Shown here: positions 57,966 through 61,783 of the stretch, piece after piece | How the letters are laid out: the number at the start of each line of letters is the position of its first letter | Numbering within the stretch: position 1 is the first letter of the stretch | Origin: an uncultured Bacillota bacterium | GTDB taxonomy: Bacteria > Bacillota > Dehalobacteriia > UBA4068 > UBA4997 | Reading direction: 5' to 3' | Assembly: GCA_948907985.1 (NCBI GenBank) | Contig: CAQWMM010000005.1 | Span: 5-64,004 of the forward strand | DNA length: 64,000 nucleotides | The notes under the pieces: model-generated | Database searches by the model: none | Told to the model about the DNA's origin: nothing | The model's input: the letters and a program-made list of their open reading frames with translations, nothing else | Position numbers and translations under genes: made by a program

Positions 57966-59330
57966 ATGGCGGCTGATAAATTTAATATGTATGGTCTGAT
58001 TGCCAAAAAGCGGGACGGCGGCCTTTTGCAGGCCGAAGAAATCCGCTTTTGGCTGCGCGGTATGCTGGACGGGTCTATTCCCGACTATCAAACGGCGGCC
58101 ATGCTGATGGCGATTTTTTGGCGCGGTTTGACTGAGGCGGAAACTTTCGCCCTGACCGAGGAGATTGTGGCTTCTGGCGAGCGGCTGGATTTAAGCGGTA
58201 TTGACGGGGTTTGTGCGGACAAACACTCTACCGGCGGGGTGGGGGATAAAACCACGCTGATTGCTATGCCGCTGGCGGCGGCCTGCGGGCTGAAGATTGC
58301 CAAGATGAGCGGCCGCAGTTTGGGCAAAACCGGCGGCACGGCGGATAAACTGGCCTCTGTGCCCGGTTTTAGGCTGGAACTGCCGGAGCCTGCGCTGTTG
58401 GCGCAGGTGGCAGAAATTGGCCTGGCGGTGGTGGCGCAGACCAAGAATTTGACGCCGGCGGATAAGCGTCTTTATGCTTTGCGGGATATGACGGCTACGG
58501 TGGATTCGCTGCCGCTGATTGCCGCCAGTGTGATGTCGAAAAAAATCGCGGCTGGCGCGGGAGTGATTGTGTTGGACGTGAAGTTTGGTTCGGGCGCTTT
58601 TATGCCGGACGCGGCCAGCGCGGCGGAACTGGCGCGGCTAATGGTTAAGCTGGGGCGCAGCGCCGGCCGGCGGGTGGAGGCGGTGATTTCTTCTATGGCG
58701 GCCCCTTTGGGCGCGGCGGTGGGCAATGCGCTGGAGGTGGCCGAGTGTGCCGATATTTTGCAGAATAAGCCGGATTTGGCGGTTTCGGCTGACTTGCAGC
58801 GGCTGGCGGTGGTTCTGGCCGGGGAAATGCTGTATTTAGGCGGTTTGGCGGAATGCCGGCGGGACGGCTGGCAGCAGGCCGAGGCGGCTTTGCAGGACGG
58901 CCGGGGCTGGCAAAAGCTGTTGGCATTTTTGCAGGCGCAGGGCGGAGATACCGAAAGTTTGCAGGCCGGCGAACTGGTACAGGCCAAACACGTTGTGCCG
59001 GTTTTGGCGGCTAAAAACGGCTATCTGTCGGCGGCGGACGCGGCGCAGGTGGCGGAGATTGTGCAGCGCCTGGGCGCAGGCCGCGAGCGCGTGGAGGATG
59101 AGATTGATTATCAGGTGGGCGTGCGGATGATAAAACCTGCCGGCGCTCAAGTTGTGGCCGGGGAACGCCTGGCCGAGGTTTACGCCAGCGATTTGGCGCA
59201 GGCCGAGGCGGCCAAAAAGGATTTGCAGCGGGTTTTGCAGGTTTTGCCGGAGCCGCCGCAGTTGGAGCCGCTAATTTGGGGACTGGTGGACGAACGGGGG
59301 AACGTTGTTCCCTGGGCGGAAGTTAAATAA
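57966..59330 (+). CDS. pdp: Pyrimidine-nucleoside (thymidine) phosphorylase
   Basis: MYGLIAKKRDGG...; DKHSTGGVGDKTTL glycosyltransferase family 3 motif; ATG 1 nt after the deoB stop. Confidence 0.92.
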   Translation: MAADKFNMYGLIAKKRDGGLLQAEEIRFWLRGMLDGSIPDYQTAAMLMAIFWRGLTEAETFALTEEIVASGERLDLSGIDGVCADKHSTGGVGDKTTLIAMPLAAACGLKIAKMSGRSLGKTGGTADKLASVPGFRLELPEPALLAQVAEIGLAVVAQTKNLTPADKRLYALRDMTATVDSLPLIAASVMSKKIAAGAGVIVLDVKFGSGAFMPDAASAAELARLMVKLGRSAGRRVEAVISSMAAPLGAAVGNALEVAECADILQNKPDLAVSADLQRLAVVLAGEMLYLGGLAECRRDGWQQAEAALQDGRGWQKLLAFLQAQGGDTESLQAGELVQAKHVVPVLAAKNGYLSAADAAQVAEIVQRLGAGRERVEDEIDYQVGVRMIKPAGAQVVAGERLAEVYASDLAQAEAAKKDLQRVLQVLPEPPQLEPLIWGLVDERGNVVPWAEVK

Positions 59331-59337
59331 AAATTAG

Positions 59338-59366
59338 TTGCCCTTTTTTTGTTTCTATGGTATAAT
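59338..59366 (+). promoter_or_regulatory. Promoter TTGCCC-17-(TGg)TATAAT with extended –10
   Basis: agTTGCCCtttttttgtttctaTGgTATAATaaaa. Confidence 0.55.
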
Positions 59367-59502
59367 AAAAATTGCACAAAGACTGAAAATTGAATTGGCG
59401 GTTAGCCCTCAGGAAGATAATTATACCCAAGTGATTGGTTTATAGTTGGCAGAATGAGGGATTGGGGCCCTCTCCACTTTGTAAGACGGGGAGGTGATGT
59501 TT

Positions 59503-59598
59503 ATGTTTTGGTTAAACATAGCGGCTTTAGTTATGCAAGCTGTTCAGCTTGGCATACAGGTTGCCGAGTTTATATTGAATCATGGCAAAAAAAAATAA
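59503..59598 (+). CDS. Small hydrophobic peptide (31 aa; 33 aa if the 59497 ATG is used), type-I-toxin-like / small membrane protein
   Basis: MFWLNIAALVMQAVQLGIQVAEFILNHGKKK. GGGGAGGTG SD 7 nt upstream. Own promoter and about 125-nt leader. T-run terminator follows. Below the ORF-track size cut-off. Confidence 0.5.
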   Translation: MFWLNIAALVMQAVQLGIQVAEFILNHGKKK

Positions 59599-59640
59599 CC
59601 GCCCTCCCAGCAAAAGGTTGCGGTTATTTTTAACCAAATT
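59599..59640 (+). terminator. Putative terminator after the small peptide gene
   Basis: aaccgc...gcggtt stem then atttttaa. Confidence 0.4.
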
Positions 59641-59795
59641 CCTAAGGGCTGACCCGATTTAAGGATCAGTTCTTTGTGCTTTTATTATACTAGAAAAGCT
59701 GAAAAAAGTCAAGATGAATTTTAAGAGTGGCCAAACGAATAGTTTTAAGCCTATCTGTTCTCACCCTCTCCGTCATATCTTCCCTAACGGTCAGA

Positions 59796-59888
59796 TATGC
59801 CACCTCCCCCTCTGGGGGAGGCAAGTTTTCCTGCTTATAAGATGAATATTTAAACCTGGCTCCCCCTTTGGGGGAGCTGTCAGCGGCG
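59796..59888. repeat. Two near-identical GC-rich palindromic hairpins (cCTCCCCC-tYt-GGGGGAGg) about 50 nt apart in an AT-rich spacer
   Basis: cacctccccctctgggggaggc (about 59800-59822) and ggctccccctttgggggagc (about 59858-59878). A third GGGGG run at about 59911. Confidence 0.6.
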
Positions 59889-59963
59889 ACTAATAGGGAG
59901 CCGATGACTGAGGGGGCTGGAAGAAGATAAAACAATGCATTTTGTCCAATCCTCAAAAAATAA

Positions 59964-60000
59964 CCCTCTACCTGCGGTTTTGCAGATAGAGGGCTTTTTT
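59964..60000. terminator. Bidirectional rho-independent terminator
   Basis: ccctctacctgcggttttgcagatagaggg flanked by a T-run on + and an A-run (a T-run on –). Confidence 0.7.
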
Positions 60001-60206
60001 CAACTTTCAACAAGTTCGACGTTTTCTAAAGCATAACGTAATGCCATACACATTACCTCGTTTCGAGAATAGCCGGTTCGGTTTGCCAGATCCTCATAAG
60101 AGTCTAGCAAGGCCTTTTCTATTCTTATGCTTGTATTGACAGGCTCGTATATACTTTTCCCTAATCGTTTAGGTTTAACAATAAATTTTTCTTCCATTGT
60201 CATCAC
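60000..60206 (-). CDS. Ribbon-helix-helix (CopG/Arc-like) DNA-binding protein
   Basis: 68 aa; KPKRLGKSIYEPVNTSIRIEKALLDSYEDLANRTGYSRNEVMCMALRYALENVE shows the beta-strand then two-helix RHH pattern. Confidence 0.65.
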   Translation of the reverse strand: MMTMEEKFIVKPKRLGKSIYEPVNTSIRIEKALLDSYEDLANRTGYSRNEVMCMALRYALENVELVES

Positions 60207-60338
60207 CTCGTTTGAATTATAAGCTAAATATAGTATATATTAAATATAAAACATAATATATACCAAAAACATATTGAAAACATATTGAAGATATACTGAA
60301 AGAGTGTTATAATTATAAAAAATTATGGAGATGATATT

Positions 60339-60812
60339 GTGGATGAAAAAAAAGAAAAACGAAAGATAACTGCCAAATTAGTTAATGATATGGATGATTT
60401 GATTAAAGATCCTCTGTTAAAAGATAAATTGACAGAAGAGGAACGGGCAATTTTAAAAAATATTGATAAGCAGGAAATATTTACGTTAGTTAAATTTTTT
60501 TCTCTCAAAGAAATTGCAAACATGCAAAAGATGAGAGATAATAAACAATATCAGAATGTGTTGGAACTTTTAGGCAAAATTGATTTTGCGGCGATAAGCA
60601 GACTGTGCAGAAGTTCAGAAATCAGTTCGATAATGCGCCAGGCCAATTTTAGTATAAAACTAAAGGCGATAGACGCGGAACTGGCTAAGGAGTTTGACGA
60701 AATTTTGCACGAACGTTTGGCTTATAATAAACTGCGCGGATTTGATAGTTTTGTTATGGCGCTGCGCACCGGCGTTAGGGCAATAATAAAGTTATATATT
60801 GAGGACTATTAA
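60339..60812 (+). CDS. Hypothetical 157-aa helical protein, no recognisable family, in AT-rich islet
   Basis: Lys/Glu-rich; codon usage and GC clearly different from neighbours. Divergent from the RHH gene, sharing a repeat-containing promoter region. Confidence 0.5.
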   Translation: MDEKKEKRKITAKLVNDMDDLIKDPLLKDKLTEEERAILKNIDKQEIFTLVKFFSLKEIANMQKMRDNKQYQNVLELLGKIDFAAISRLCRSSEISSIMRQANFSIKLKAIDAELAKEFDEILHERLAYNKLRGFDSFVMALRTGVRAIIKLYIEDY

Positions 60813-61708: not shown

Positions 61709-61783
61709 TGGTACGCCTGATAGGAATCGAACCTACGCTTTCGGCTCCGGAGGCCGACGCTCTATCCACTGAGCTACAGGCGC
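61709..61783 (-). tRNA. tRNA-Arg (anticodon CCG), CCA encoded
   Basis: Reverse complement GCGCCTGTAGCTCAGTGGATAGAGCGTCGGCCTCCGGAGCCGAAAGCGTAGGTTCGATTCCTATCAGGCGTACCA. Cloverleaf with D-arm GCTC/GAGC, anticodon loop CUCCGGA, T-arm GTAGG-TTCGATT-CCTAT; G1-U72. Confidence 0.85.

Follow-up and report, generated by a model that had tools for sequence, protein, structure and literature searches.

We analysed a 64,000-nt stretch of contig CAQWMM010000005.1 from an uncultured Bacillota bacterium (assembly GCA_948907985.1), referred to below in its full length as the window; all coordinates are window positions. At 59338–59712 we found a module of ~375 bp that is probably a self-contained cassette of the type I toxin-antitoxin kind. 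It would consist of an mRNA for a conserved 31-residue hydrophobic peptide, with a leader hairpin closing the Shine-Dalgarno (SD) sequence, and of a convergent gene for a short antisense RNA that shares its terminator with the mRNA (Table 1). We consider it rather likely that the module represents a new type I family, where toxicity and RNA expression are what we infer. The initial annotation of this DNA had placed a promoter–leader–peptide–terminator unit at 59338–59640 and proposed a type I toxin or a small membrane protein. The elements it listed are all present and the end of the unit shifts to 59712 once the antisense gene is included; conservation of the open reading frame (ORF), the antisense gene and the SD hairpin argue in favor of the function it proposed.

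For comparative analyses, peptide homologues were collected by an exhaustive phmmer search over 1.84 billion representatives, by a DNA-pattern scan of metagenome contigs, and by a protein search with P0002 together with a look-up of its clusters. DNA fetched around homologues (loci such as L087, L093, and L101) was printed in register, and the homologous modules were found to fall into two subfamilies. Codon comparison included 10 distinct ORFs, and residue-level alignment of the peptide 8 members. The antisense promoter was scored in 10 loci, with the near-identical L109 and L110 counted separately unless stated, and the antisense RNA was aligned over 10 loci; for the leaders we used 9 sequences with RNAalifold and 6 sequences of subfamily 1 with a hand-named structure.

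Table 1. Predicted features of the module, in order along the forward strand (TM, transmembrane; MFE, minimum free energy; pN/pS, non-synonymous versus synonymous divergence; AF2, AlphaFold2)
Feature	Position	Strand	Description	Basis
Peptide mRNA promoter	59338..59366	+	−35 TTGCCC (59338-59343), 17-nt spacer, extended −10 TGgTATAAT (59358-59366)	scan, 10/12 + TG
5′ leader	59376..59502	+	~127 nt; small 5′ hairpin, A:B helix, inner hairpin	MFE fold
SD-sequestering hairpin	59469..59498	+	anti-SD CCTCTCC (59469-59475) with SD GGGGAGG (59488-59494); extended SD GGAGGTGAT	RNAalifold, covariation
Peptide ORF	59503..59598	+	31 codons + stop, product MFWLNIAALVMQAVQLGIQVAEFILNHGKKK; one TM-length helix, Gln/Asn/Glu stripe, Lys tail	homologues, pN/pS, AF2
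Bidirectional intrinsic terminator, common to both RNAs	59587..59633		stem AAAAATAACCGC / GCGGTTATTTTT, 17-nt loop	inverted repeat, fold, covariation
Predicted antisense (antitoxin) RNA	59677..~59583	-	~95 nt; 5′ ACAAAGAA, hairpin CTGATCC..GGGTCAG (59669-59649), C-rich GCCCTTAGG (59649-59641), terminator	fold, alignment
Antisense RNA promoter	59712..59684	-	TTGACT-17-TATAAT	scan, 11/12

Conservation of the peptide ORF

The phmmer search returned seven homologues with E-values from 2e-9 to 5e-4 and 58–84% identity. Five of the seven are exactly 31 aa long, and the other two are longer proteins with the peptide at the C-terminus, for which a wrong upstream start had been called. Two further variants came from the scan of metagenome contigs, and two further members from the P0002 search and cluster look-up. 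All 10 compared ORFs have 31 codons with zero indels. In frame, the mean pN was 0.22 vs. a mean pS of 0.52, and this bias was lost in the shifted frames (pN/pS of 0.28/0.31 and 0.31/0.20). Residues M1, M11, Q12, Q15, L16, Q19, F23, and K31 are invariant, and a 9-nt extended SD sequence stands at optimal spacing in all members. The substitution pattern indicates that the ORF is a real gene and that its protein is under purifying selection. A lone 31-codon ORF would be trivial, but the preservation of its length, reading frame, start and stop codons, and SD, along with the terminator and both promoters, in 10 homologues is above chance. The initial annotation had named conservation of the ORF as a check on the peptide, and the outcome is in its favor.

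The strong SD and the 31-aa ORF that had been claimed are both there, the extended SD ending 4 nt before the ATG at 59503. Two in-frame starts lie upstream, GTG at 59494 and ATG at 59497. The latter is just 2 nt beyond the SD and its counterpart in L087, as read from the sequence, is out of frame, and for these two reasons the ATG at 59503 was chosen as the start.

The exact peptide sequence is absent from a collection of 15 billion proteins, so that the annotation of the source genome does not contain it. The prediction that the ORF is invisible to standard gene callers is only partly true, as several homologues have been called, some of them with wrong upstream starts. The peptide family is undescribed, being absent from Pfam and NCBIfam (no match at E up to 10), PHROGs (no match at E ≤ 0.01), PADLOC, PDB, Rfam, and the searched literature, where the peptide motif does not occur; no cluster member has a name.

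Much of the conservation in the module is at the RNA or DNA level (promoters, 5′ domains, terminator), the Lys codons double as the T-run of the antisense RNA, and the module terminator may end the transcript of the preceding gene, pdp, since none lies between the two. These features would suit two non-coding RNAs, or else a mobile cassette of promoters and terminator that insulates neighboring operons, with the ORF being incidental. Against this, ORF substitutions strongly favor synonymous sites and do so in no other frame, the length, start, and stop are invariant, the extended SD is optimally spaced in every member, and polar and hydrophobic positions are kept as a helix pattern; we therefore rate such an explanation as extremely improbable.

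Two observations on the ORF may be added. One family member from Logan contigs, P0011 (79 aa), does not stop after position 29 but continues (...ILNHGKRPIRF...) with ~50 additional residues until sequence resembling a terminator is reached, and is probably a degenerate or insertion-bearing copy. In the window, an inverted repeat at 59507–59525 / 59620–59638 (19 nt, 84% complementary) could bring codons 2–8 into pairing with the T-run and the 3′ terminator arm; the complementarity is weaker in the homologues inspected by eye and may be due to chance.

Predicted properties of the peptide

The AF2 model of the peptide is a single helix over residues 3–30, with a predicted local distance difference test (pLDDT) score of 86. 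Mean Kyte-Doolittle hydropathy over residues 1–26 is 1.37, and the net charge of +2 is located at the C-terminus, in the KKK tail. Residues N5, Q12, Q15, Q19, E22, and N26 are confined to an arc of 100 degrees and form a polar stripe. With a moderate hydrophobic moment (0.3), the peptide has a hydrophobic stretch long enough to span a membrane. The model bears out the earlier description of one amphipathic or TM helix with a Lys tail. Membrane-acting type I toxins are generally small (<60 aa) hydrophobic peptides with a TM helix and, usually, cationic C-terminal residues (PMC8309996), and we find the same traits in the predicted helix, hydropathy, and Lys tail of the 31-aa peptide. As to the proposed likeness to TisB, Fst, and Hok, the peptide is of the same kind only; no homologous sequence was found in any of those families.

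A short helix of this type, initiated with formyl-Met, amphipathic, lacking a signal peptide and ending in a Lys tail, could also be secreted to act on other cells, as a cytolysin of the phenol-soluble-modulin (PSM) or delta-toxin type or as a leaderless bacteriocin. Its composition resembles that of PSMs and leaderless bacteriocins. We consider this very unlikely, as no exporter, immunity, or regulator genes are linked to the module in eight contexts, the hydrophobic moment is only moderate while the hydrophobic length spans a membrane, and a convergent antisense RNA with a shared terminator is not a known trait of such loci.

The predicted antisense RNA gene and the shared terminator

A search for an antisense RNA across the unit had been suggested in the initial annotation. 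As shown in Table 1, the sequence does contain a candidate at 59583–59712, partly outside the unit first delimited, with a convergent near-consensus promoter, a 5′ hairpin, and a terminator shared with the mRNA. In the window this promoter is stronger than the sense promoter (11/12 vs. 10/12). In 8 of the 10 loci (7 if L109 and L110 are merged) the homologous promoter is a 12/12 TTGACA-17/18-TATAAT, and the remaining two score 10–11/12. The distance from the end of the antisense −10 box to the stop codon is always 84–91 nt in the loci scored, and the antisense gene is kept in every homologous locus that reaches that far.

The predicted antisense RNA is complementary to the final ~15 nt of the ORF and to the mRNA 3′ end. 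Its fold (−31 kcal/mol, z = −2.9) was not equaled by any of 200 shuffled sequences. The consensus over 10 antisense RNAs shows the 5′ hairpin and a 12–15-bp terminator in all of them, with double changes at five pairs.

The T-run terminator claimed downstream of the ORF is present as a hairpin followed by a T-run, and it appears to be bidirectional. Its arms (59591–59602 / 59620–59631) are 12 nt long and 100% complementary, the fold reaches −15.2 kcal/mol (z = −3.9), and the helix is kept with compensatory pairs in 10/10 antisense RNAs. A consensus terminator scan missed it because of the 17-nt loop. On the minus strand, the complement of the AAA AAA AAA Lys codons is the T-run TTTTTTTTT. Transcription from ~59677 would enter the same hairpin and then this T-run, which makes the terminator bidirectional. 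The 3′-terminal ~50 nt of the two RNAs, comprising the terminator hairpin and the last codons, would then be perfectly complementary.

In Rfam searches of the window, only a tRNA reached the gathering score. The best local match, OrzO-P, scored 26 bits against a threshold of 60 and was rejected as a resemblance of terminators only.

The predicted sense transcript and SD-sequestering hairpin

The near-consensus extended −10 promoter described earlier was recovered by our scan. A promoter of this sigma-A type would yield a peptide mRNA of ~260 nt. An equivalent sense promoter lies 119–143 nt from the ATG in 7 homologous loci; across loci, sense promoters score 9–12/12 and the TG extension occurs in four. 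The 5′ end of the mRNA, placed from the homologues, is likely the A of ACAAAGA (59376), and the 5′ sequence ACAAAGAG..GGCGGTTAGCCCTC of the leader is kept among homologues. The leader obtained in this way (~127 nt) agrees with the 125 nt and the internal complementarity proposed before. Element A, GCCCTCAG (59405–59412), is complementary to element B, TGAGGG (59455–59460), and the CCTCTCC element pairs with the SD.

RNAalifold recovered the anti-SD:SD helix in 9/9 leaders. In the 6 leaders of subfamily 1 this helix was 100% paired, with one compensatory pair (G-C to A-U), and the A:B helix was 83% paired, with 2 compensatory pairs. The hand-named structure as a whole was paired in 91.7% of the cells, vs. 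47–60% when the 3′ partner was slid by 1–3 columns. Three leader pairs changed on both sides, among them the double changes GGGGAGG:CCUCCCC to GAGGAGG:CCUCCUC, for which the window carries the G-U intermediate, and CCCUCA:UGAGGG to CCCUCG:CGAGGG. The covariation score was reached by 2 of 500 shuffles. By partition function, the probability that the SD is unpaired is ≤0.04 in subfamily 1 and 0.04 in the window; in subfamily 2 the SD is less tightly closed. Taken together, covariation in the leader provides moderate evidence for the SD hairpin, from few related sequences. Two hallmarks of type I loci are found here at the sequence level: an antisense RNA gene with its own promoter and terminator, and a cis structure that would limit translation of the mRNA (helix in 9/9, compensatory changes).

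Two other possibilities were considered for the leader and set aside. A helix between UGAGGG and the beginning of the ORF via G-U pairs, as proposed by RNAalifold in subfamily 1, was judged weaker than the A:B helix. The mRNAs of tisB, zorO, and hok are activated by 5′ processing; here, in silico removal of element A leaves the SD closed.

Upstream of the module are deoB and pdp, the latter with its stop codon at 59328–59330. The GC content falls from ~0.62 in pdp to ~0.41 across the module, in line with the AT-rich location noted initially. No terminator lies between the pdp stop (59330) and the −35 box of the module (59338). Read-through from deoB-pdp would run into the toxin leader, and the bidirectional terminator may end the pdp transcript too. 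The upstream gene is co-directional with the module in four contexts.

Predicted pairing between the two RNAs and their 5′ domains

In the par locus of pAD1, direct repeats DRa and DRb let RNA II cover the SD and the start codon of its target (PMC7472228). We searched for a second pairing site of this kind with RNAduplex and by ungapped complementarity, against both the whole leader and the −45..+15 region. Over 10 loci, the best match between the antisense 5′ domain and either target was 7–9 nt, which is not above shuffled sequences. As a positive control we used a par-like locus found in L104, for which the same search returned 24 contiguous complementary nucleotides across the start codon, equaled by 0 of 300 shuffles. 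By these searches the module has the par layout without the second pairing site of par, and the 3′ overlap is left as the sole assured RNA-RNA interaction.

The 5′ domains of the two RNAs instead resemble each other. In the window, the mRNA start ACAAAGACTGA...TTAGCCCTCAGG is similar to the antisense start ACAAAGAACTGA...TCAGCCCTTAGG; in subfamily 2 a different 5′ sequence, GAAAAGAG...GCGGCTGCCCCCTC, is likewise shared by both RNAs. The first ~40 nt of both are of the same sense, beginning with 5′ ACAAAGAG followed by a small hairpin and a single-stranded, C-rich GCCCUC. Sense and antisense 5′ ends have 27–35 matches out of ~45, vs. a shuffled mean of 12, with the exception of L104, in which the sense 5′ end is probably mis-set. 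At the DNA level these twin domains are inverted repeats that reach into the promoters, so the cassette is bounded by ~70-bp repeats; the repeat arms are 33 nt (76% complementary) in the window, 15 nt (100%) in L101, and 20 nt (85%) in L099. We also considered concerted evolution of the two domains and found it unsupported, given that similarity within loci is not consistently above that between loci, which leaves paralogy at the family level only.

GCCCUC is complementary to UGAGGG and to the SD, over 4–7 bp only. It is doubtful, in our estimate, that the twin 5′ domains are functional and represent a type I logic of a kind not described before. If they were, one factor, an RNase or an RNA-binding protein, could recognize both RNAs and set their ratio; alternatively, the antitoxin could give in trans a C-rich strand like the one whose cis pairing closes the leader or covers the G-rich SD, in addition to kissing of the terminator loops.

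Portability and distribution of the module

Similarity among loci starts at the sense −35 box and stops at the antisense −35 box, and the flanks are unrelated. By this comparison the module is portable and behaves as an autonomous unit. It follows pdp in the window, ilvC in L087/L114 (where an aminotransferase gene is also found in the flanks), a gene for a ~1800-aa SLH protein in L093, and a DAHP synthase gene in L105, and it precedes nadE in L101; in L103 and L104 the flanking genes are different again. SLH and Coat_F genes occur in homologous loci, and the hosts are probably spore-forming, uncultured Firmicutes. When Pdp was used as query, the 80 genome loci listed, from Peptococcaceae, Gracilibacteraceae, Bacilli, and others, were ≤49% identical and none among them had the peptide.

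A translated, conserved TM peptide with an antisense RNA would be equally expected if the product were a small membrane protein without toxicity, such as one modulating a transporter, a sensor, or the sporulation membrane, that is tuned by a cis-antisense RNA and has a regulatory role instead of one in addiction or stress. The polar Gln stripe could bind a partner membrane protein, and the module resides beside housekeeping genes and not on plasmids or phages. Yet its neighbors differ in every lineage, with no conserved partner gene beside this autonomous and portable cassette; the closed SD together with an antisense promoter of consensus strength is a double lock typical of harmful products; and the copy in L104 lies beside a par-like toxin locus. 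On balance, a non-toxic role seems unlikely to us.

The par-like locus of L104 (metagenome-assembled genome GCA_948973335.1) is a classical par/Fst-like type I locus at 250–560, with ~250 nt separating it from the module downstream. Its 29-aa peptide MDVLFSFAIVVAGNVAFYYIIKWLDSIWR is accompanied by a promoter, an SD, a bidirectional terminator, and, in convergent orientation, a second promoter TTGACA-17-TAAAAT, and the 24 nt complementary to its start-codon region lie at the 5′ end of its antisense RNA. A 32-aa paralogue of this peptide is encoded 3 kb away (L104:3396-3494), and neither of the two matches Pfam. Small-toxin loci appear to be clustered in this genome.

Dozens of independent Logan contigs (L093-L098, L116, L118-L120) have their ends precisely at the final codon of the peptide ORF. 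A 30-nt stretch at the 3′ end of the ORF is identical across different members, and more is shared through the stop codon and terminator. With such a stretch in common, a k-mer assembly graph would branch there whenever two modules co-occur, and one run (SRR35209577) does contain two different family members. The contig ends are indirect evidence of multiple copies per genome or community. In L114, phage genes for a large terminase and an SPP1-type portal (L114:6372-8096) begin 2.3 kb from the module, with a spore-coat Coat_F gene and small ORFs in between.

Proposed mode of action

For the type I interpretation we propose the following sequence of events, by analogy with par/Fst, txpA/RatA, and bsrG/SR4. 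An abundant antisense RNA would pair with the mRNA via the complementary loops and stems of the terminator. Pairing would lead to duplex-dependent decay and/or keep the ribosome-binding site closed, so the peptide would be made only when antisense RNA is short. The peptide might then insert with its C-terminus inside, oligomerize via the polar stripe, and depolarize or permeabilize the membrane. Convergent RNAs overlapping at their 3′ ends are the rule in Gram-positive type I systems (PMC4147584), and we also counted the adjoining par-like locus in L104 (250 nt) in favor of this interpretation.

Several points weigh against it. RNA ends, translation, toxicity, and neutralization are all features that we infer. 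No known toxin family in Pfam, NCBIfam, PHROG, PADLOC, or PDB is homologous to the peptide. For the window sequence alone, the energy of the SD hairpin (z = 0.15) is no better than that of shuffles and was not used as support; what supports the hairpin is comparative, from few sequences (6–9, in two subfamilies). Complementarity between the RNAs is guaranteed over ~50 nt only, which is the terminator, and no region pairing with the ribosome-binding site was found above shuffled controls. Type I modules are often found on phages and plasmids; we detected no copy in 50,697 phage records, 72,556 plasmids, or IMG/VR contigs, and no further copy in the 64-kb window.

Remainder of the low-GC islet

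A ~250-nt non-coding stretch (within 59720–59960) separates the antisense promoter from the terminator of the next, RHH-like gene and has two perfect CTCCCCC-NNN-GGGGGAG hairpins (59804–59820 and 59860–59876) placed 56 nt apart, where 0.2 would be expected by chance. Rfam matches to this stretch (whalefall-1, MIR477) are all sub-threshold, and an 88-aa ORF called over it is probably spurious. The rest of the islet (59962–60812) has a GC content of 0.25–0.35. It contains a minus-strand gene at 60000–60206, which has its own terminator at 59995–59962 and whose 68-aa product matches a ribbon-helix-helix model weakly (RHH_1, E 0.004, below the cut-off), and a 157-aa ORF at 60339–60812 that has no family and is found only in this species. 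A tRNA gene on the minus strand (61712–61783, 72 bits) lies where the low-GC region ends on its far side, and it might be a landmark of integration for the islet.

Comparison with known systems

In architecture the closest system is par/Fst of Enterococcus faecalis pAD1, of the Fst/Ldr group. There, RNA I and RNA II share a bidirectional terminator, the terminator loops initiate pairing, and a 5′ stem-loop closes the SD (PMC7472228). The module shares with it the convergent promoters, bidirectional terminator, and SD stem-loop, and likewise combines a toxin mRNA and a short antisense RNA with a single-helix peptide of ~30 residues that has a charged C-terminal tail. Repeats of the DRa/DRb type were not found in the module, the antisense 5′ domain lacks complementarity to the start region, and both RNAs have similar 5′ domains of the same sense instead. 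The peptides differ as well. The PXXXG(C) motif of Fst and the Trp before its charged tail are absent, the 8 aligned members having no Pro and their only Trp at position 3, and the C-terminal tail is acidic in Fst-pAD1 but cationic in the module peptide.

The module can also be compared with txpA/RatA and bsrG/SR4 of Bacillus subtilis, which are likewise convergent systems of a Firmicute chromosome whose RNAs pair by their 3′ ends alone. For the module an overlap of ~50 nt is predicted, if both RNAs end at the shared terminator, vs. ~75 and ~120 nt for txpA/RatA and bsrG/SR4. Degradation in txpA/RatA proceeds through RNase III, and in bsrG/SR4 it is combined with a long-range tightening of the SD stem (PMC4147584). 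With its 3′ overlap the module would be in the situation of these two systems, and either route may apply to it. The bsrG SD lies in a stem that is influenced from afar by the antitoxin, and the duplex is degraded by RNase III (PMC4147584). TxpA has 59 residues (PMC4147584); the module peptide is about half that length, is unrelated in sequence, and has no family match. In contrast to these systems, the phage, plasmid, and IMG/VR searches placed no copy of the module in a prophage or skin-like element.

With TisB of the E. coli tisB/istR-1 locus there is a resemblance at the peptide level only, both being TM helices of ~30 residues with a single polar stripe. The stripe of TisB consists of D5, K12, Q19, D22, and K26, all at positions that also belong to the stripe of the module peptide, which is a resemblance and not homology. 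It forms a charge zipper, whereas the stripe of the module is uncharged Gln/Asn, and there is no sequence homology (no Pfam match). TisB forms pores and depolarizes the membrane (PMC8309996). The antitoxin IstR-1 is divergent and acts in trans at a standby site, in contrast to the cis, convergent, 3′-overlapping antitoxin predicted here. LexA/SOS control as in tisB is not evident for the module, for which no search for a LexA box was made.

Annotation of type I toxin-antitoxin loci is very incomplete, owing to the tiny size of both genes. With the module, uncultured Firmicutes that probably form spores would contribute a new family of toxins, and further copies can be annotated by means of the DNA signature that the module conserves (twin promoters, ...GCAAACAAAAATAGCCGC..GCGGCTATTTTT). 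As a minimal design, the helix of 31 residues and its Gln ladder could serve to study the rules of membrane-pore formation or oligomerization. For specialists the kind of system is ordinary, and the novelty, a par-like layout without 5′ pairing together with twin 5′ domains, is modest. Since the layout is that of par and the 5′ complementarity is missing, the module makes silencing of a toxin mRNA from its 3′ end only directly testable.

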